This document shows, piece by piece, positions 10,484 through 49,887 of a stretch of 64,000 bases of DNA. Numbering within the stretch: position 1 is the first letter of the stretch; each line of letters starts with the position of its first letter. Source of the stretch: Acidobacteriota bacterium (GTDB lineage Bacteria > Acidobacteriota > UBA6911 > RPQK01 > JADFOI01); the NCBI GenBank assembly GCA_963663035.1, contig OY760074.1, forward strand, positions 3,258,967 to 3,322,966, read 5' to 3'. Under the pieces are notes generated by a model. The model saw only the letters and a list, made by a program, of their open reading frames with translations. It ran no database searches and had not been told where the DNA came from. The position numbers and the translations under genes were made by a program.

Positions 10484-12220
10484 CTATCTCTTTTGGAATT
10501 GTGGTGAGCCCAGCATAAAAGCAGCAGCAATCACCTGCTTGGAAAAGCGAGTCTGACGCAGACCATCTCGCCGATCCTGCTCTTCTCCGGCCTGCCCGAG
10601 AAGGGTGCGGGTCTGCTCGAGTTGTTGGGTGTTGGGTTCAGGAAGCCTGAGCTGCTGGAACAGCGGCCCGGCTGATGCAAGATCTACCCGAATCTGAGGA
10701 ATCCTGTCAGCGGCTAGAACGAGGGCGAAGTTCAATCGCTGTAGCAGCGAGTTGGTATTAATCCAGGCAGAAGCCACATCCGGGTAACCAGTGGGTTCCT
10801 GGCACAGGTAGAGCGCCTCCCCCATTTCGGCCAAGACCTGCATCAGCCGACGGGCCGGGCGCATCTCAGCTTCTGTAGCGCGTAGAGAACTCACCACCAG
10901 TTCAAGAGGCTTCTTGACTTTGGCCTGATAGGCGTCGCGGGAGAAGAAGTGAGGATGAGTAAAGATTGTCCATAATACCTCTCGGATGTCTCCGCCCGTC
11001 CGCTCGAAGGTGAGACTTGCCGCATCCACCAGGTCCTCGGGAGGATCGTCGGCGACGAAGCGCCGAACCAGTTTTGTGGAAATAAAGCGAGCGGTGGAGG
11101 GATGGCGAGCCAGCATCTTGATCACCTGCTCACCCTCTTGAACTCCACCGGATCGAATAGTCTGCCCCAGCACCACTTTGTCGCCCTCTTCGTGCAGAAG
11201 AGGTTGGAACTGAAAGGGGCCTCCCTGTCGGGGAGCCGTAATGGTCCAGCCCGTTAAAGCCCTGGCCACCTGGATGACATCCTCCTGGCTGTATCCTCCC
11301 TCGACACCGAGAGTGTGAAGCTCCATTAGCTCTCGGGCATAGTTCTCATTGAGGCCCTTGGCACGCTGTAAATTCCTCAGGATTGCCCGGTCTGCCGGCT
11401 GGCGGGTACTCTGCTGGCGCCGCCTGCGAGAGCGCGGTGCCAGACGACTTCTTAAAGTGGCGACGCGTTCTTCCATGACCTGGGCAGGTGCAGAACTGAT
11501 CCAGTTGTCCAGGTAAAAAAGCATGGCCGGGCTCTTGGCGGTTGCCATCAGGAGATCTTCGAATTTTCCCAGGACCAGGGGACGCACGACGCTTTGCTCG
11601 AAATCGGTCGTGTACACTCGATCCTGACCCTTGGACAGGAAGATATTGAAGTGGTTCATCCAGAAGTCAGCCATCACTTCCTGAAGCTGGCGCTCACTGT
11701 AAAGAGCCCGGAGCAGCTTGGCCTGGGTGAGCTCGAACCGAATCTGCTGCATACCCTCTCGCATCTGTCGGCGAGCCGCTTGCATTTCCTCGGTGACCTC
11801 AGGGACTGAATCGGATCCAGACATCTGCTCTGGGTCGTTCTGTCTTTCCGCCTGGAGGGTCTGCATTTGGCGTCTCAGCTCATTGGTACCGGAAGAGAGT
11901 TCGGCCAGCTCTGGCGGGGTCATGGTCAAGGTCTTGAAACCGGCCAGTTTTTCCTCCACGACGGTCTCGGGAATGAGCTGGGGACGAAGCTGCTGCTCGA
12001 TATAGGCTTGAATCCCCATGGCCGCGACTCGTTCGATATCTCCCGGTCGAGGTCCAAAGCTCAAGCGATTCAGTACGTGGATGATTTTCTCCTCTTCTGT
12101 CAGTGTCATCTCCTCAGGGCCGGCCCAGGAAAAGACAGACGCTCCAGGAGCAATCAATAAAGAGCAAAGCACCAAAGCCAAAATGGACTGTCCTGTTCTT
12201 GCTGAAGCCAAACTCTCCAT
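10484..12220 (-). CDS. DUF1800 family protein (partner of DUF1501)
   Basis: Signal peptide MESLASARTGQSILALVLCSLLIAPGA with GGAG RBS; ORF-track N-terminal extension (to 12346) runs into repeat B and is rejected. Confidence 0.65.
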   Translation of the reverse strand: MESLASARTGQSILALVLCSLLIAPGASVFSWAGPEEMTLTEEEKIIHVLNRLSFGPRPGDIERVAAMGIQAYIEQQLRPQLIPETVVEEKLAGFKTLTMTPPELAELSSGTNELRRQMQTLQAERQNDPEQMSGSDSVPEVTEEMQAARRQMREGMQQIRFELTQAKLLRALYSERQLQEVMADFWMNHFNIFLSKGQDRVYTTDFEQSVVRPLVLGKFEDLLMATAKSPAMLFYLDNWISSAPAQVMEERVATLRSRLAPRSRRRRQQSTRQPADRAILRNLQRAKGLNENYARELMELHTLGVEGGYSQEDVIQVARALTGWTITAPRQGGPFQFQPLLHEEGDKVVLGQTIRSGGVQEGEQVIKMLARHPSTARFISTKLVRRFVADDPPEDLVDAASLTFERTGGDIREVLWTIFTHPHFFSRDAYQAKVKKPLELVVSSLRATEAEMRPARRLMQVLAEMGEALYLCQEPTGYPDVASAWINTNSLLQRLNFALVLAADRIPQIRVDLASAGPLFQQLRLPEPNTQQLEQTRTLLGQAGEEQDRRDGLRQTRFSKQVIAAAFMLGSPQFQKR

Positions 12221-12234
12221 GGTGATCTCCTGAC

Positions 12235-12415
12235 TAGCCCGCATTATGCATAGGTTTACGTAGCAAAGTGGCGAAAGCGCCGCGATGACAAGGCGTGCTA
12301 CGAAGCGCCCCGCAGGCGTACTCTTGCAGTACGCCGAGGAGCGCAAGGAAGCACAACGCCGTCAGCGCGGATGATTGCGACACTATTGCAGAAAATTTAT
12401 GCATAATGTGGGCTA
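12235..12415 (-). repeat. family-1 MITE-like repeat, copy B (short variant, reverse orientation)
   Basis: TA-GCCCGCATTATGCATA ... TATGCATAATGTGGGC-TA; the two ends co-vary (GCAT/ATGT). Confidence 0.75.
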
Positions 12416-12536
12416 AAAAGCACTTCCTTCATCCTTGCTGCTTGTTAATACGGACCGCAACCAGAAATGTTTCTGACCGGGCCGGGTGTTCCTATCCTCC
12501 CTTCAGGTTATACTCAGTACAAAGGCTACCGTATTG

Positions 12537-15194: not shown

Positions 15195-15407
15195 TAGCCG
15201 GGATTATGAATAAGTTTCCTACTGCAGTGCCGCAATCATCCACGCTGACTGCGTTATGCGACCCGCAAAGCGGGTACCCCTTGGGCTCCTCGGCGTACTG
15301 CATGAGTACGCCTGCGGGGCCCGACCCGCAAGCGGGTGCCCTCGCATGCCTTGTCATCGCGGCGCCAGCGGCACTTCGTCACGAAAACCTATGCATGATC
15401 CCGGCTA
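15195..15407 (+). repeat. family-1 MITE-like repeat, copy C
   Basis: TA-GCCGGGATTATGAATA ... TATGCATGATCCCGGC-TA (CCGGG/CCCGG compensatory swap versus copy A). Confidence 0.75.
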
Positions 15408-18518: not shown

Positions 18519-18597
18519 AACAACTCACCTGTCCGCGGCCTCGCTACATTCGTTATAATGGTTTCAGAGAAGTAATGACCTTCCCCAGAGAAACCCA

Positions 18598-18806
18598 AGC
18601 CCGTATTATGCATAAATTCTCTACTGCAGCGACGAAATCATCCGCCCTGCCCATGTTGCGCGACCCGCAAGCGGGTACCCCTCAGCTCCTCAACGTACTC
18701 AAGAGTACGTTTGCGGGGGCCGACCCGTGGCGGGTACCCCTCGCGCGCCTTGTCAGGTCGGCGCTTTCGTCGCTTCGTGACAAGAACCTATGCATAATCC
18801 GGGCTA
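18598..18806 (+). repeat. family-1 MITE-like repeat, copy D
   Basis: GCCCGTATTATGCATA ... TATGCATAATCCGGGC-TA; lacks the two distal hairpin modules present in copy A. Confidence 0.75.
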
Positions 18807-19660
18807 GCCTCCTCGCCATTGGCCTGTTCTATGTGACGGTGAGCTTCACCCCGTTGTCCGCCACCGGCCAGGATGAGGGTGCCCTCAGGACAGAGGCTGG
18901 GACTTGGCCGTCTCAGAGCTCTCGCCTGGTTCGCTTTGCCAACGATGCCCTGACAGTGGAAGTAAAAGATGCTCCGCTGGAGGAGGTGCTTCGGGAAGTT
19001 GCCCGTCAGAGCGGTCTCAGTATCGTGTGGTATGGCACAATCTCAGAGAGTATCTCCATAAGCTTTCAGCGGCTCTCCCTGGAGAAGGCCTTGACTCGGA
19101 TCTTGCGCAATCACAGTTTTGCCCTGGCCTACTCTCAGGCTCGAGAGGGTCCCTCCAAGGATGCACGACTGAGGGAGCTGTGGATTATCCCCAAAGGAGC
19201 AAAAGGCGCTCCGGTCCCATCCACTGTTGTTGTGTCCAAGACCGAAGAGGACCTTCTCCGGGAAGAAGCCACAGATTTCGCCCTGTTGCGAGCTGCCCTC
19301 AGGAGTGACGATTCCTGGGAACGGGAAGATGCAGTGGAGGCCTTGGCAGAGATAGGACGCCCCGAGGCTGTACAGTTCCTGCGTCCGGCCCTGAGGGACG
19401 AGGATGAGGATGTGCGGGAGGCAGCCATTGCCGCTCTTGCTAACATCGGTGGAGATGAGGCAGCCCTGGCCTTGGCCATCGTCCTGCAAGACGAGGATGA
19501 GTGGTTCCGTGAGGAGGCTGTAGAGGCTCTGGGTGAGATCGGCGGAGAGAGTGCCATTCGGCTTCTGGAGCAAGCCTTGGAAGATGAAAACGAAGACGTC
19601 CGCGAGATCGCTGCAGACCTGCTGGAAGAGCTGAGAGAGAACTCTAGCGAAAGGCCCTAA
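18803..19660 (+). CDS. secreted protein with STN-like domain and HEAT/PBS-lyase repeats
   Basis: Signal-like LLAIGLFYVTVSFTPLSATGQ; VEVKDAPLEEVLREVARQSGLSIV (STN-like); four EDVREAAIAAL-type HEAT repeats; 5' end lies in repeat D, start codon uncertain. Confidence 0.5.
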   Translation, partial: ASLLAIGLFYVTVSFTPLSATGQDEGALRTEAGTWPSQSSRLVRFANDALTVEVKDAPLEEVLREVARQSGLSIVWYGTISESISISFQRLSLEKALTRILRNHSFALAYSQAREGPSKDARLRELWIIPKGAKGAPVPSTVVVSKTEEDLLREEATDFALLRAALRSDDSWEREDAVEALAEIGRPEAVQFLRPALRDEDEDVREAAIAALANIGGDEAALALAIVLQDEDEWFREEAVEALGEIGGESAIRLLEQALEDENEDVREIAADLLEELRENSSERP

Positions 19661-21337: not shown

Positions 21338-22006
21338 TTGCCTGAGGATGAGTTGTTTATCATAATAGGTTCCAATAATATGCTGCCCCGTTCAGACTAT
21401 TACAGAATGCCGGCCAATCCCTGGATTAGCTTCAAGTACTGTGACCTCACGAAGCTGATCAAGCTGCGCGTGAGCCCGAGCATCAGAAAGCGCTACAAGA
21501 ACTTCGACGGCGCCATAGCCCTGGGAGAGATGGCTCCTGAAATCGACCTCAAGGGCGATAACGGTGAGGGGTTCCGCCTTTCTGACAGAATTGGCAAGAA
21601 GAACGTGGTTCTGGTCTTTGGCGCCATAACCTGACCGCCCTATCGCGGGCAGGTGTCCGCCATAGAGGAGGTGGCCAGGAAATACCATGATGCCGAGATC
21701 TGGCACCTGTATGTCCGGGAGCCGCATGCCCAGGAACGCGGATTCAAGAAGTATTTCAAGCACAAGGACTACCAGGATCGGGTTGCCTATGCTCAGGAAT
21801 TGCGCGAGGTCATGAACATCAAAAGCCCCATTGTGCTGGACGGCATGGATGAGAAAATTCATCTCCAGTACGGGAACATGCCCAATGCTGTCTATGTCGT
21901 CGACAAGGAGGGGAAGGTCGTCTACAAGGCCAACTGGACTGACTCAGCTGTGGTGGACCAGGTCCTGGCTGAGTTACAGGCTGAGGAAGCCAGTCCGGGG
22001 CTCTAG
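21338..22006 (+). CDS. iodothyronine-deiodinase-like thioredoxin-fold selenoprotein candidate (in-frame TGA at 21632-21634 read as Sec)
   Basis: Two same-frame ORFs separated only by TGA; context VVLVFGAIT-U-PPYRGQ matches the deiodinase active site FGSxT-U-PPF; thioredoxin-fold C-terminus; candidate SECIS hairpin GCGG-GCAGGUGU-CCGC 12 nt downstream. Confidence 0.6.
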
Positions 22007-22207
22007 CCCGGATTATGCATAGGTTCTCGTCATGAAGCGGCGAAAGCGCCGGAAAACAGAGCCGCGGGCTTTAGCCCACGGGCCCGCAGGCTAAAGCCTG
22101 CGGGCCCGACTGGCGCGCGAGGGGTACCCCGCTTGCGGGTCGCGCAACGCTGGCAGGGCGGATGATTTCGCCGATGCAGTAGAGAATTTATGCATAATCC
22201 GGGCTTA
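22004..22207 (-). repeat. family-1 MITE-like repeat, copy E (reverse orientation; its terminal TAG is the stop codon of the upstream gene)
   Basis: TA-GCCCGGATTATGCATA ... TATGCATAATCCGGGC-TTA; carries the distal hairpin modules but only one GACCCGCAAGCGGGT dyad. Confidence 0.75.
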
Positions 22208-22237: not shown

Positions 22238-22684
22238 ATGAAAAAAGGATTTCTGTTATTGATGGTTCTACCGCTTGGACTCACTTTCTGTGGTTCCGGC
22301 GAGCAGCAGGTGGCCAGCGCCGAGCAGCAGGCCGTCGTCACTTCATTTCAGTCCTACGTCGCTTCTCAGGTAGCTCTGGCTGGCGACAATTTTAGTGCAG
22401 CCGGGACTGCTCTTGCAGAGTTGGCCACGGAGAGCACCGGTGATCTGAAAGTGCTGGCTGAGGAGGCTGCCCAAGCCGAGGATATCGAAAGTATGCGCAC
22501 GGCCTTTATACCCCTTTCCGAGGAGGTTGCGAAGCTGGACCTCCCTGAAGGATTAGTGGTGGCCTTTTGTCCCATGGCCAATAACAGCCAGGGTGCAAAC
22601 TGGGTTCAAGCAGACGGAGCCATCAATAATCCCTACTTTGGATCTGCCATGCTGGACTGTGGCGAGATCGTGCAAGAGAACTAG
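22238..22684 (+). CDS. DUF3347-like lipoprotein
   Basis: Lipobox LTFCGS; conserved CPM ... NPYFG ... MLDCG pattern. Confidence 0.5.
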   Translation: MKKGFLLLMVLPLGLTFCGSGEQQVASAEQQAVVTSFQSYVASQVALAGDNFSAAGTALAELATESTGDLKVLAEEAAQAEDIESMRTAFIPLSEEVAKLDLPEGLVVAFCPMANNSQGANWVQADGAINNPYFGSAMLDCGEIVQEN

Positions 22685-23340
22685 ATTCTGGATCCCCGGC
22701 CCGATTGTAGTTGGCCGAGTTGGCTGAAAAGCAAGTAAAAACCCCAGAGCAGGGAGAGAGCAACCACAGCGATTCCAGAGTAGTGAGCCAGCTCTGCCAG
22801 GAAGTGATCGTATTCGAGCCATCCGAGTTGGGTCAGTAGGTTGTTCCAGTCATGATAGCCGGGCCGATCCCGGCCGGTCACTCCCCCCAGCAGCATCAGC
22901 TCTTGGGCACGAGCGTCGTTGATGTAAGGTGCAAGCTCAATCAGACTTTGCCCTGTCCACCACAGCGTCACCGATGCCGCAAAAGTGTCCAGGTGGCGGG
23001 TCAGGAATGCCACCGTGCAGATTAATGGCACCAGTACCTGAAGAAGTGATCCACCCAGAATTGTCATGAAGCGGCCCAGTGGCAGGAATACCACGTGCCC
23101 AGCTTCGTGAAAGACAAGATTGACCCTGGACAGGATGAAATGGGGGAGAGAGGGCAACATCTGGGAACGTTCGATACTCAACGTCATGAAGGTCCAGCCC
23201 ATCACCAGCAGGGCTAGCCAGATAATGCCGCAGGCCACGATTTGGCCTCCGTTGGATTTTTCAGGCAGCGTGAGAGCACGCTGAACAACTCGGACCAGCG
23301 GACCCCCGGAATCAGCTTCCCATTCCTCTCTTCCCTCCAT
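22681..23340 (-). CDS. multi-pass membrane protein with HExxH motif (putative intramembrane metalloprotease)
   Basis: FHEAGHVVF within a hydrophobic protein of ~6 predicted helices. Confidence 0.4.
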   Translation of the reverse strand: MEGREEWEADSGGPLVRVVQRALTLPEKSNGGQIVACGIIWLALLVMGWTFMTLSIERSQMLPSLPHFILSRVNLVFHEAGHVVFLPLGRFMTILGGSLLQVLVPLICTVAFLTRHLDTFAASVTLWWTGQSLIELAPYINDARAQELMLLGGVTGRDRPGYHDWNNLLTQLGWLEYDHFLAELAHYSGIAVVALSLLWGFYLLFSQLGQLQSGRGSRI

Positions 23341-23444
23341 ACTTCCATCCTACCAGGTGCCCAGCCCTTTCTGAGGGATCGGTCGGAGAAGTAACGGGGT
23401 CAGGAAAGATAGAGAGGAAACGAAAGGTTGCAAGGCCGATCTTT

Positions 23445-27175: not shown

Positions 27176-27260
27176 AAGAAAGGAGTCAGGAGAAAGGAGT
27201 CAGGAGATAGGAGGAGCTGTCAGCTGTCAGCGGGCCAGTTGTCAGTGGTCAGTGGTTCCG
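27176..27260. repeat. tandem short repeats (AAAGGAGTCAGGAG)x2, (CTGTCAG)x2, (TTGTCAGTGGTCAGTGG)
   Basis: Reverse complement of the CTCCTGA heptamer array at 9196-9214. Confidence 0.7.
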
Positions 27261-28080
27261 TGGTCAATTGCCAGCTTTCCAGGATGGGTATCAGCCCGTG
27301 GTCGGTGGTGTCCAATTGCAAAGGAGTGATGGCAATATAACCCTCCAGCAGGGCCCGCAGGTCGGTGTTGGGTGCGCCACCAGTTGCTGGCTGGTAACTC
27401 TGCCAAAAATAGTCCTGCCCGCCCGGCATCTCTCCCTTCACGTAAAAAGAACGGGAGACCTCCAGGCTGAGGGATACGATTCTCCCTCCCTTGACTTGAT
27501 CTTCCGGCAGCGCCGGGTAATTGACATTGAGGAAGGTTTTGGGTGGAAGCTTCTCTTTCAAGTACTTTTCCACCAGGTGGGCAGTGAATTCCGCTGCCGC
27601 CTTAAAGTCCATGTGGGAACCGGATTGAACGGAAACGGCGATAGAGGGAATCCCCTGAAAGGCAGCCTCACGGGCTGCAGCCACGGTGCCGGAGTAATAA
27701 CTCACCAGTCCCAGATTGTCACCATTGTTGCTGCCAGAGACCACAATATCCGGTCTGTCAGACAACAGACTTTCCAGTGCCAGGCTCACGCAAGTGGCTG
27801 GCCGGGCAGTGATGGCGTGCCAAACAGAACCTCCCTCATCTGTCCGCGTGGTCACGAAAATCGGAGTGCGTCCCGAGGTCAAACCATGGCTGCTAAGGCT
27901 CTGATTGGTGGCCGGAGCTGCCACGGTCACTGTGCCCACTCGACTGAGGGCCTGGTGCATGGCCAATAACCCGGGAGCGTCAATCCCATCGTCGTTGGTG
28001 AGGAGAATGTGGGGCAGGTTTTGAGAAAGACCGAAGACAGAGAAGGACAGTGTTACCAAGACAAGAAGCAGTTTTCTCAT
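27220..28080 (-). CDS. surE: 5'/3'-nucleotidase SurE (with signal peptide)
   Basis: ILLTNDDGIDAPGL...SGSNNGDNLG. Confidence 0.8.
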   Translation of the reverse strand: MRKLLLVLVTLSFSVFGLSQNLPHILLTNDDGIDAPGLLAMHQALSRVGTVTVAAPATNQSLSSHGLTSGRTPIFVTTRTDEGGSVWHAITARPATCVSLALESLLSDRPDIVVSGSNNGDNLGLVSYYSGTVAAAREAAFQGIPSIAVSVQSGSHMDFKAAAEFTAHLVEKYLKEKLPPKTFLNVNYPALPEDQVKGGRIVSLSLEVSRSFYVKGEMPGGQDYFWQSYQPATGGAPNTDLRALLEGYIAITPLQLDTTDHGLIPILESWQLTTEPLTTDNWPADS

Positions 28081-34048: not shown

Positions 34049-36647
34049 GTGGGAACCCGTATGTCGGAGGACATCTCTAAAATAAAAGAGAAGAGGAGTT
34101 TTACCCTACCAATCCGGAAGAGGCGTGCAGCTGTGAGATCCGAAGGCTATCAGGAAGTAGTGAGAAGGCCCTGGGAGGTTCTTGACCAAGAGATCTTCCC
34201 TTACCTCAATGTTGAGAGATTGTTTGCAGATGTTCGAGGGTTGAAACGCTACGGTCGCTTCTGGCATGGTTCCTGTCCCATCCACGGCGACCTGCAAGGT
34301 GCCTTCTCGATTGATCCGGAAAGACTGGAGTGGAGCTGTGCTCTGGGGTGCGGGGGAGGTGGTCCGGTCCAGTACCTGCAGAAGCTGCGCGGGCTGTCCT
34401 GGATGGACGCTGCGCGAGAACTGGCCAGTCTGGCCGGAGTAGAGCCATCAATTTTCGATCCTTGGCAAGAACACTGGACAGAAGAAGACTTTCTCCTGCA
34501 CGCGAGGTTGGAAAGCCGGTCCAGCCTGCTGGGATTCTTTATGACCTATACCCGATCTTTTTATCGGTCTCTGGCCGGTCAGACAGTCCGCAGTCATCTC
34601 ATCACCCGACAGGGTTTCCCCGAGAACAAGCTCGAGGAGCTTGATCTCGGGCTGTACACCGCCCCGGAAGACGTGTGGCACTGCCTGAAGAAGACAGGAC
34701 GTGATTTGGAAGAGGTCCGTTCGTGGGGCTTGTTTGAGGCGCCATGGAGCGGTCGCATAGTGGGTTGCTGGAAGGACCTTCAGGGCAGAAGAATTAATAT
34801 CTGGGGTTGGCAGCCCAAGGAGACTTCCACCGGACAGGCCAGTATGGAGGGACGCATCCTTTTTGAACAGGGCGATGCTTTAGGTGGGAAAAGCGTCCCC
34901 TTCAATCTGGATGTTGCTGCTGGTTTGGAAAAGCGTGATCTGCTCCTGTTGGAGAGCCCTATCAAGGCCCTCTTTACCCAGTCCCTGGGTCTTGAAGACC
35001 CCTTTCCCGTGGCGGCAGGAGGAGACCTGAACAGCGTGCAGATTGAGGCTATGCAGAAGCACCTTCGCTTGGGCGGCGCGCTGACCGTCTGTTGGGACTA
35101 TGATCCTGAGACTGACGGAACCAAAAAGGACAGAGCCTTTACCACGCTGCAACGATTGAAGAAAGCAAACTTTCCTATCTACGTCGTGAATCCGGCATGC
35201 CTGGCAGATCAGAGCAGGCCAAAGCAAAAGGTTACGGTCAATGACTTTATCCTGAGACACGGAGGAGGTGAGAAAGGGCTTCAAGCTTTTCAAGAGCTTC
35301 TTGAGAAACCAGAGAAGTATGAAGCGGAAATGATTGTCGACGGAACAGCTTTAGGAAACCAGAGCGGGATCTGGCCAGGGGTCTTGGAGATCTTTCACAG
35401 TTTCTCCTCCAGAAACTCTAGAGCCTCCGCCAAAGCAGATGAAGACGAGATCATCTCCGAACGCCTTCAAGCTCTGGAGCCCATGTTCCAAGCAGCTGAA
35501 GAGATCGGACGCAGTATAGCCAAAGGTTTCTTAGGTGGTCTACCCAGGCGTCTTGCCAATGAGTTGGCGGGCGAGGCCTCTAATGGACTGCAGCTCGCCT
35601 CACATTCCGCCGGAGAATTGGCCAGTCTTCCCGTTCAGATTTCGAGTCCCCCCACTTTCTCCGTTGATCGCCTGGGAGAGGAAACCCGTGCGGCTCCACT
35701 AGTCGAACTTTCGGGTTGGCAGGCACTGGACAATCTGGAGGTTCGCTTCAACCCGGGAGAGCTGGCCGTTTTAGGGGGGCGCACAGGGCACGGAAAAACC
35801 TCGATGCTCCTGGGTCTACTCCTGGAGTGGCTCGAGAAGGCCGCTGTACAGGGGACAGACAAGCTTTTTCTTTTCTATTCCGTGGAGGAACCGGAGGTTC
35901 GCATCTATCACCGCCTGTTGAGTCTTTTAACGGCCAGAAATGGAACGGGCTGGACCATCCATCAAGTCGAAGACTATCTGAAACAGAAAAATGGTCATCC
36001 GGTTGAGTATTCGCCCCTTGATCCGGAAACCTTGGAGGCTGCCGAAGGACGTTTCCACTCTTGGGAAGAATGTCTTCAGATTCTCTACCAGCCCACCTGG
36101 ACCATAGCAGAACTGGAGACCTATGCTCGGAATTTATCCGAGAGCCGAAAAGTGGGGGCGATTCTTGTGGATCACCTACAGCGCATTCCACCACCAAAGG
36201 GAACGCATGGCCGCCGCGATGTGGAGATTTCCACCGTCGCTCATCGCCTTAAGACCTTGGCGGTCGACCTGTCCTGTCCCATAGTCACAACTGCTCAAAT
36301 TGGGCGGCAGGCTCTTCAGCGAGCACATAAAATCCCTGCCAAACAAGCCCCTTGGGGATGTGAATGTGCTGGGAGCCATCAAAATGCGTCGTCCCCAGCT
36401 CCAACACCTGAGAGAGGGTGGAATTGAGCAAGAGGCGGACCTGGTCCTTGGACTGCTGAACTACGCGGCCGATTACCAGGCTGAGATGGAGGAACCAGGG
36501 TCGATCGCCGCCACCACACCTTTCGAGGTGGGCACCCTCAAGAACCGGTATGGGCCTGTGGGCTGTTGGGCTTCCCTTCGCTTCCAAGGGCGATTCGGAT
36601 TTTTGCAAGATCCGGGAATCCTAGCCCACCTGATGCTGGCCCTTTGA
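34049..36647 (+). CDS. T7 gp4-like primase-helicase (DnaG zinc finger plus Toprim plus DnaB-like helicase), +1/-1 frameshift near 36300-36340
   Basis: CHC2 finger CPIHGD...CALGCGGGG; Toprim E...WDYDPETDG; Walker A GGRTGHGKTS; VDHLQRI, TTAQIGRQ; the DnaB C-terminal motifs (RRPQLQHLREGGIEQEADLV, NRYGPVG) continue only in the other frame. Confidence 0.65.
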
Positions 36648-48620: not shown

Positions 48621-49887
48621 TGACCTTGCCCCCTAAAACGAGTCCAGTTTGAATGTTAGGATTTCCGGTTTAGGAAGGAGGCAAGGATGGCAGGGAAGCG
48701 GTTTAGGGCAGAACAGATCATCATGAAGCTGCGTGAGGCAGAGGTGGGTCTGGCCCAAGGACAGAGGGTGGGACAGGTGTCGAAGCAGATGGGGGTGAGC
48801 GAGCAGACCTACTACCGGTGGCGCAAAGAGTACGGAGGGCTCCGGTTGGACCAGGCCAAGAGGTTGAAGGTGTTGGAGAAGGAGAATACCCGGTTGAAGA
48901 AGCTGGTGGCGGATCTGTCTTTGGACAAGCAGATCCTGAAGGAAGTGTCCTCGGGAAACTTCTAGGCCCGGCGAACAGGAGACGAGCGGTGATGTGGGTA
49001 CGAGAGCGATTAGGAGCAGAGCGAGTCTCCGAACGTCGGGCCTGCCAAGTGCTGGGACAGGTTCGATCGACCCAGCGAAGGGAAAGGCAAATTCCCGATG
49101 ATGAGGCCCGATTGGTGGCCCGGATGGTGGAGTTGGCTACGCAATACGGGCGTTATGGCTACCGGCGGGTCACGGCGATACTTCATGGGGAAGGGTGGAA
49201 GGTGAATCCTAAGCGGGTGGAGAGGCTGTGGAGACAAGAAGGGCTGAAAGTCCCGTCCAGACAGCCGAAACGAAGGAGGCTGTGGCTTAATGACGGTTCC
49301 TGTGTTCGGTTACGAGCGGCTCGCAAGAACCACGTCTGGAGCTATGATTTCGTGCATGAACGGACCCATGATGGGCGAGCCTTTCGGCTATTGACGATCC
49401 TGGATGAGTACACCAGAGAGTGCCTCGCCATTGATGTGAAACGGCAGATGAATCACCAAGACGTGTTGGACCGGCTGGCGGAGTTATTCGTTGATCGGGG
49501 AGTGCCTGAGTTTATCCGGTCCGATAACGGATCGGAGTTTACGGCACAGGCGGTCCGGGACTGGCTGCAGGCTGTTGGGGTAAGGACCTTGTACATCGAG
49601 CCGGGCAGCCCCTGGGAGAATGGGTACATTGAGAGTTTCAACGGGAAACTACGGGATGAGCTGCTGAACATGGAGATCTTCGACACGCTGGGGGAAGCCA
49701 AGGTGTTGGTAGAACGCTGGCGGAGGGATTACAATCAGATCCGGCCTCACAGCGCCTTGGCCTATCGGCCGCCGGCGCCAGAGGCCAAACTACCTAGGTC
49801 GCAGGCACTGGATCCAATCCCTTGGAGTGGACTTCAAATGGTCCCGGGTCTAGCATAGAGGGTGGACTCGTTCGTGGGGGCAGGTCA
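48621..49887 (+). mobile_element. IS3-family insertion sequence (1267 bp) with imperfect 27-bp IRs and 4-bp ATGT target duplication
   Basis: IRL TGACCTTGCCCCCTAAAACGAGTCCAG; IRR rc TGACCTGCCCCCACGAACGAGTCCACC; ATGT on both flanks. Confidence 0.8.
48687..49858 (+). CDS. IS3-family transposase OrfAB (HTH OrfA plus DDE/rve OrfB via -1 frameshift at G_GGA_AAC, 48953-48959)
   Basis: OrfA 48687-48965 with HTH and leucine zipper; OrfB rve core ...DNGSEF...; slippery heptamer in correct register; post-shift peptide [15 protein letters not shown] continues OrfB. Confidence 0.8.

Follow-up and report, generated by a model that had tools for sequence, protein, structure and literature searches.

The DNA analysed here is a stretch of 64,000 nt (called the window below) from contig OY760074.1 of an Acidobacteriota bacterium (assembly GCA_963663035.1), and this report deals with a gene in it that is split by an in-frame TGA codon and very probably encodes a deiodinase-like selenoprotein. 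A sequence-only reading of the window, made from the letters and without database searches, had pointed to two open reading frames (ORFs), 21338-21634 and 21653-22006 on the plus strand, which share one frame and are separated by a single TGA. This was confirmed on the sequence: only the TGA at 21632-21634 stands between the two ORFs, and the read-through peptide quoted at that time (...KNVVLVFGAIT*PPYRGQVSAIEEVARKYHDAEIWHLYVREPHAQ...) agrees with the translation. The stretch around the TGA reads VVLVFGAIT-[TGA]-PPYRGQV...YVREPHAQ. The following features were assigned to the gene (Sec, selenocysteine; SECIS, selenocysteine insertion sequence; Dio, deiodinase).

21380-22006, plus strand: complete gene of the putative selenoprotein, 208 codons, with Sec as codon 85 and the stop codon TAG at 22004-22006
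21632-21634, plus strand: in-frame TGA, codon 85, predicted to be read as Sec from its invariance in orthologues and its alignment to Dio3 and Dio2
21380-21631, plus strand: N-terminal half (residues 1-84), which gene finders treat as an 84-aa ORF of its own
21635-22003, plus strand: C-terminal half (residues 86-208), with PPY, Y111, E114, H116, H128, D133-R134 and W186
21645-21660, plus strand: SECIS-like upper stem-loop within the coding sequence, GCGGGC / AGGU loop (21651-21654) / GUCCGC
21630-21679, plus strand: extended lower stem of the predicted minimum-free-energy fold (-27.3 kcal/mol)
21338-21366, plus strand: weak sigma-70-like promoter match, TTGCCT-17-CATAAT

The sequence-only reading had let the gene begin at 21338, where the upstream ORF opens mechanically with a TTG codon. 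Comparison with the orthologues moved the start downstream. The string M[LEQK]PRSDYY forms the N-terminus of every orthologue (in one of them with V, from a GTG start) at the position of the ATG at 21380, and the DNA similarity to more distant relatives begins at 21379/21380. Since these two observations coincide there, the true start is almost certainly the ATG at 21380, and the gene therefore spans 21380-22006, has 208 codons and carries the TGA as codon 85. The N-terminal half consists of a clade-conserved extension, PRSDYY..W.SFKYCD, which holds Cys21, and of strand beta-1, which ends with GAIT. The protein sequence shows neither a signal peptide nor a transmembrane segment, and the N-terminus is without a hydrophobic stretch. 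The promoter match lies just upstream of the ATG; it is a match to the consensus only and is not significant (1 found against 0.7 expected in shuffled sequences).

Searching the protein databases gave 31 relatives, all of which cover the C-terminal half only (about 54% of the query) and are filed as hypothetical proteins with a precomputed assignment to the Pfam family PF00837. Gene callers take the TGA for a stop, which limits the entries to this half; on those contigs of the relatives that were examined, an 84-codon ORF is situated directly before it in the same frame. A further 20 loci came from scanning species-representative genomes and metagenome contigs. The loci with a taxon name come from metagenome-assembled genomes (MAGs) of Acidobacteria/Acidobacteriota and from one Tectomicrobia MAG, and the metagenome contigs have no taxon name. 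Two metagenome copies were set aside for frameshifts: L021 (1501-2119) has two compensating frameshifts flanking the Sec codon, and L024 (1501-2107) has one after about codon 110; sequencing error or decay may account for either. Codon 85 was TGA in 14 of the 14 distinct full-length orthologues, whose amino-acid identity ranges from 72 to 94%. The mean synonymous divergence (pS) in this orthologue clade is 0.54-0.59, and the ratio of nonsynonymous to synonymous substitution rates (dN/dS) is 0.11 before the TGA (codons 1-84) and 0.10 after it (codons 86-200), so both halves are under strong purifying selection and the C-terminal half is conserved as coding sequence to the same degree as the N-terminal half. 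An in-frame TGA was also found in eight distant Sec-type relatives (31-47% identity in the C-terminal half), in the context [GS][AIFY]T-TGA-[PD]P[YF]. The initial argument that a premature stop is unlikely to have landed there by chance is thus borne out by an invariant TGA in the 14 orthologues and the 8 distant relatives. Global reassignment of TGA was considered and rejected, as TGA is an ordinary stop codon elsewhere in the window: it ends 10 of the 27 family-supported genes, and it also terminates this very gene in several orthologues.

Three of the loci are cut by contig ends. In one MAG, contigs L012 (JAZFTY010000061.1) and L013 (JAZFTY010000053.1) both end exactly at the TGA of the gene, and contig L014 starts inside the C-terminal half. 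Probably the assembly broke here, where two nearly identical copies or strains meet in the conserved hairpin region.

With cysteine (Cys) put in place of the stop, the read-through protein matched the Pfam model PF00837 (T4_deiodinase) with 56.3 bits against a gathering threshold of 27. The match runs from residue 41 to 184, on model positions 68-217 of 237, and therefore covers both sides of the TGA. PF00837 outscores the models AhpC-TSA (37.9 bits) and Redoxin (32.0 bits). The best matches in the PDB were mouse Dio3 (4tr3, E = 5.7e-9) and then Dio2 (9h48), and codon 85 aligns with the catalytic Sec of both (Sec170 in mouse Dio3). The results support the assignment of the predicted protein to the prokaryotic deiodinase-like family, PF00837, and uphold the first description of it as a deiodinase relative on a thioredoxin fold; the alignment to family models that had been proposed then is the one above the gathering threshold reported here. 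The animal signature seen in the sequence-only reading stood in part: the TGA does fall on the catalytic Sec within a T-U-P-P-aromatic turn (U, Sec), and of the string EAHPSDGW only the pattern Y..E.H is reproduced.

Two narrower or competing assignments were rejected. NF038285, annotated 'deiodinase family protein' (deiodinase_rel, a hypothetical equivalog), was the top NCBIfam match; it scored 106.1 bits, below its cut-off of 250, and the alignment was restricted to model positions 177-324 of 347. A peroxiredoxin of the AhpC/TSA type (PF00578) would carry PxxxTxxC, and the string LVFGAIT-U-PPY of the read-through protein has its Thr at -1, not -3, and is without Pro at -7; PF00578 matches as a clan relative.

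The proton relay of deiodinases is composed of Ser, Thr, Tyr, Glu, His and His (PMC11592359). Five of these six positions are kept in the window protein, T84, Y111, E114, H116 and H128 corresponding to Thr169, Tyr197, Glu200, His202 and His219 of Dio3, and the position of the serine (Ser167) is occupied by Ala82. The five residues are invariant within the orthologue clade. Among 33 bacterial full-length homologues, Y111 and E114 occur in all, T84 and H116 in 31 each and H128 in 17. The T-Sec-P-P-aromatic turn is common to the window protein and Dio1-3 (structures 4tr3 and 4tr4 for Dio3, 9h48 for Dio2), as is the D-R that follows the second His (D133-R134 here). Unlike Dio1-3, the window protein has no membrane anchor, and its insertion between H116 and H128 (loop-D in the sequence alignment) is 5 residues shorter than that of Dio3. 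Nor does it possess the distal Cys239 and the Arg275/Glu259 clamp of Dio3, which align with P150, W186 and N169, respectively; the placement of W186 is approximate, as the phmmer alignment stops just short of it and the column has a gap in the Dio3 fragment. W186 is present in 33 of the 33 bacterial homologues and N169 in 30. Overall identity to the Dio structures is low (E = 6e-9). Cys21 does not vary within the orthologue clade; a role as resolving cysteine of the whole family was rejected, since the residue is missing from the distant Sec forms and from the Cys homologues.

An exhaustive search with the C-terminal half produced 708 relatives at E <= 1e-3. Many of them begin right behind the Sec residue, which presumably makes them split Sec forms too, and others are full-length. 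In the 33 full-length homologues the residue at the position of codon 85 was Cys in 29, Ser in 3 and Asn in 1, and the Cys-bearing homologues, with strings such as FAAMTCPPAR and GSITCPMY, are single polypeptides. Orthologues with Cys at the U position, which the sequence-only reading had suggested looking for, therefore do exist and are in the majority among the full-length homologues.

Downstream of the UGA the mRNA can form a hairpin of 6-7 bp, whose stem begins 10 nt and whose loop begins 16 nt after the UGA; the 12 nt given earlier for the start of the hairpin needs to be corrected. The extension with UAU/AUA around a C-C mismatch described at the same time was recovered in the fold (21641-21643 with 21662-21664, within 21641-21664). 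The lower stem is poorly conserved; its pairings vary among the orthologues, and the consensus structure retains the upper hairpin only. The 75-nt fold is modestly unusual in its stability (z = -2.1; 8 of 200 shuffles), and the hairpin carries weight because it is conserved and not because of its fold stability. All of the 13 distinct orthologue sequences compared form its six upper-stem pairs (100%), and the only changes there are from G-C to G-U. Of 98 codons that specify an invariant amino acid with degenerate coding, 11 are invariant in nucleotides as well; five of these, codons 87 and 89-92, make up the 5' arm and the loop of the hairpin, and elsewhere only 6 of the 93 comparable codons are nucleotide-invariant.

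The hairpin was also found far outside the clade. In seven of the eight distant Sec-type relatives (L025-L031), there is a hairpin whose GGU-containing loop begins 16-17 nt after the UGA. The stems differ in sequence and the pairing is kept: CCGGC/GCCGG, GGCGGC/GCCGUU, CGGCGGC/GCCGCUG and GGGCGA/UCGCCC, as well as UUGAGGCA/UGCCUCAA and UAGGAAGC/GCUUCCUA. Taken together, a stem of 6-8 bp (5 bp in L025) with a loop of AGGU, GGUC or GGU at 16-17 nt after the UGA is seen in 15 of 16 sequences. Among the 2,219 TGA trinucleotides on both strands of the window, only 2 are followed at this spacing by a GGU-loop hairpin whose stem has 6 bp or more; the second such TGA, at 27522 on the plus strand, is antisense to surE (27220-28080, minus strand) and was taken as a chance match. 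The features of the hairpin fit the bacterial SECIS consensus that underlies bSECISearch of Zhang and Gladyshev. The frozen synonymous sites, together with the compensatory stem changes in the distant relatives, support the view that this putative element behaves like a bacterial SECIS, as its GGU loop had first suggested.

Based on these data, the best explanation of 21380-22006 is a functional gene, from an uncultured Acidobacteria-type bacterium, for a soluble thioredoxin-fold deiodinase-like selenoprotein that would be decoded with Sec and use deiodinase-type chemistry; we put its probability at about 0.9. The internal TGA itself almost certainly encodes Sec. The data establish the intact gene, its family, the conserved UGA, the conserved and covarying hairpin and the Sec/Cys pair among homologues; the actual insertion of Sec, the reductant and the substrate are inferred.

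Several observations weigh against this explanation. No selA, selB, selD or tRNA-Sec was detected in the 64-kb window, where about 40 ORFs were compared with NCBIfam and Pfam and RNA genes were sought with ARAGORN and Rfam, or in the fetched loci of the relatives; 21 related loci were free of tRNA genes altogether. Within the close clade, covariation was uninformative, consisting of one-sided changes from G-C to G-U that shuffles equalled, and the evidence for compensatory changes in the stem comes from a handful of distant sequences. The AGGU loop is at the same time the junction of a conserved [QE]-V dipeptide, so that constraints on protein and RNA are partly confounded; this dipeptide is not conserved in the Cys homologues. 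No Rfam family matches the element, and a scan of 21580-21760 at a permissive E-value returned noise only (DicF, HOTTIP_3). One distant relative, L032, has the in-frame TGA and no comparable GGU-loop hairpin at the usual spacing, and its recoding signal, if any, must differ. To our knowledge, none of the bacterial family members has been assigned a biochemical function.

The gene in L032 (1225-1854) reads GSYT-TGA-PPF, has a signal-peptide-like N-terminus and adjoins a multihaem cytochrome gene. A search of the window for a second selenoprotein gene, by same-frame ORF pairs split by TGA and by TGA followed by a hairpin and an open frame, gave nothing credible. Organisms that decode Sec do occur among Acidobacteria (PMC1794560).

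The alternative that survives best, although we regard it as improbable, is that the UGA is recoded to Cys, Ser or another residue, either by a SECIS-dependent Cys-inserting system of SelC*-type tRNA-Cys and a SelB-like factor or by an opal-suppressor allo-tRNA. tRNA-Sec-like tRNA-Cys may act as opal suppressors, and allo-tRNAs, possibly nonsense suppressors, have been reported in Acidobacteria (PMC5389517); nothing in the sequence tells insertion of Sec from that of Cys, and the window yielded no Sec machinery. On the other hand, TGA and hairpin are kept across 31-94% identity while many relatives use TGC or TGT, which is the pattern of a genuine Sec/Cys family, and general suppression conflicts with the use of TGA as the end of 10 of the 27 genes.

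Still less probable is a selenoprotein gene whose hairpin serves mainly for regulation or termination control, the 84-residue peptide being the main product and read-through incidental. Such a scheme could draw on the inefficiency of Sec insertion in bacteria, where some truncated product is generally expected, and on a fold only modestly more stable than its shuffles. The C-terminal half is constrained just as strongly as its counterpart and carries the catalytic relay; it therefore makes no sense as a rarely made product, and the 84-residue fragment is without most of the fold.

The least likely explanation is a true stop, i.e. a pseudogene or two small genes of 84 and about 117 aa as annotated: 31 database proteins do consist of the C-terminal half alone, gene finders place the 84-aa ORF before it on the contigs of relatives that were examined, and a GTG or an ATG (codon 92) could mechanically start the second ORF, but a single thioredoxin-fold domain extends across the TGA, the stop coincides exactly with the catalytic residue and is invariant in 22 sequences with dN/dS of about 0.1 in both halves and no other stops, the homologues with Cys are undivided, the supposed second start codon sits in the conserved hairpin loop, and the only disrupted copies, L021 and L024, are frameshifted and belong to low-quality contigs.

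Under the selenoprotein explanation, the anatomy of the locus suggests that SelB carrying Sec-tRNA(Sec) would bind the hairpin 10 nt past UGA85, that Sec would be inserted at this codon, and that translation would continue as far as the TAG (22004). Judged by the homology with Dio2 and Dio3, Sec85 in the T-U-P-P-Y turn would be the selenolate nucleophile, backed by the relay of T84, Y111, E114, H116 and H128, which would protonate the leaving group. The selenolate might abstract an electrophilic atom, either a halogen from an aromatic halide or an oxygen from a peroxide, and the oxidised selenium would then be re-reduced by an external thiol or thioredoxin; an external reductant is proposed because no resolving cysteine is conserved across the family.

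As to the substrate, thyroid hormone is not a likely one. We do not claim a function as thyroid-hormone deiodinase because the clamp residues and the N-terminal membrane anchor are absent. By analogy, the protein would be a soluble Sec-dependent reductase with a deiodinase-type half-reaction, and dehalogenation of some other aryl halide is possible. A more specific proposal, that it is a cytoplasmic Sec-dependent reductive dehalogenase of natural halogenated phenolics (iodo- and bromo-aromatics) in uncultured Acidobacteria and Tectomicrobia, is put forward tentatively, and we consider it rather unlikely as it stands; it is suggested because the T-U-P-P-aromatic turn and the proton relay are kept and the hormone clamp is lost. 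If true, dehalogenation would proceed here by a non-corrinoid route that tolerates oxygen, and the thyroid-hormone deiodinases of animals would have been recruited from this ancestral chemistry.

Bacterial deiodinase-like selenoproteins (Pfam00837), together with Cys homologues and a bacterial SECIS, were described from the Sargasso Sea by Zhang, Fomenko and Gladyshev in 2005 (PMC1088965), and a deiodinase-like protein is listed in the 2022 and 2026 reviews of prokaryotic selenoproteins with UxxC as the representative redox motif. The gene studied here is accordingly a new, mis-annotated member of a known family and represents neither a new family nor a new mechanism; it is not a new family because such selenoproteins were published in 2005 and appear in the current reviews. 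With that prokaryotic family it has in common PF00837, the UGA at the active site, a downstream SECIS hairpin with G in a small loop, coexisting Cys homologues and, presumably, a redox function. It differs in that this clade has U-P-P-Y, without Cys at +3 and nearer to the T-U-P-P-F of animals, whereas the representative motif of the reviews is by description UxxC. Furthermore, the clade is found in MAGs of Acidobacteria and Tectomicrobia and bears the N-terminal extension with Cys21, whereas the 2005 family came, by description, from surface plankton of the Sargasso Sea. The Cys-type bacterial PF00837 proteins, including those of NF038285, share with the window protein the catalytic domain, the T-C-P-x-aromatic turn, the motif Y..RE.HP and an invariant Trp (W186 here); they use Cys (or Ser/Asn), and many of them have signal peptides, membrane segments or extra domains.

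Bacterial SECIS elements such as that of E. coli fdhF are intragenic hairpins about 11 nt after the UGA, with a small G/GU loop and a G+C-rich upper stem. The hairpin of the window resembles the fdhF element in its spacing, its G/GU apical loop, its G+C-rich upper stem and its location in the coding sequence. Unlike in fdhF, the sequence is unrelated and no bulged U is evident in the upper stem, and the binding of SelB is predicted. The element also differs from that of the vertebrate Dio genes, a kink-turn structure in the 3' untranslated region, in being a hairpin of the bacterial type in the coding region.

Every database entry found for the clade is a truncated 'hypothetical protein' and none is annotated as a selenoprotein; reading the two ORFs as one gene corrects the record. 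It also implies the use of selenium by an uncultured lineage of Acidobacteria and Tectomicrobia. The related hairpins, with the same GGU loop and spacing on different stems, form a clean, small data set for models of the bacterial SECIS. As the relay is kept without the hormone-binding residues, the protein is a reasonable candidate for deciding between dehalogenation and a generic redox chemistry of thiols and peroxides as the ancestral activity.

The 'Acidobacteria bacterium' MAG contigs L005 and L015 are syntenic with the window, at about 91% DNA identity. The gene is flanked by a divergent gene for a PF01663 phosphodiesterase and, downstream, by a gene for a DUF3347-like lipoprotein. Genomic context was rejected as a clue to function, for the neighbours are syntenic only in the nearest relatives and the clade at 75% identity has different ones. 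The other features around the gene and further off in the window are as follows (MITE, miniature inverted-repeat transposable element).

22003-22206, plus strand: MITE-like repeat at the 3' end of the gene, with inverted-repeat ends and other copies in the window
22238-22684, plus strand: small lipoprotein with lipobox LTFC, a weak DUF3347 match and the motif CPM...W.Q...NPYFG..M.DCG
22681-23340, minus strand: ORF of 219 aa, membrane-protein-like, without a Pfam match
34049-36427, plus strand: ORF of 792 aa with DnaG-primase-like and DnaB-helicase-like matches
48818-49858, plus strand: IS3-family transposase

The MITE-like repeat is about 205 nt long with terminal inverted repeats CCGGATTATGCATAGGTTC, and its ends gave 9 matches against 0.01 expected. 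At least four copies are present in the window, at 22003-22206 (plus strand), 18597-18807 (minus strand), 12234-12419 and 2716-2969, with stray ends near 15385 and 29817; the repeat also occurs in L002, at about 10867-11053. The copy at 22003-22206 is missing from L005 and L015. It supplies the TAG stop codon of the gene and alters the last residues of the protein (ASPGL* against AKAAT*), and it is not part of the selenoprotein system.

The closer relatives keep the lipoprotein gene in synteny; in L001 it begins before the selenoprotein gene has ended. The 219-aa ORF lies in a 755-bp stretch (22681-23435) that is absent from L005 and L015, which align on both sides of it, making this the second indel near the gene. 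Further downstream, the combination of DnaG- and DnaB-like matches, typical of mobile elements, and the IS3-family transposase suggest mobile DNA in the window.

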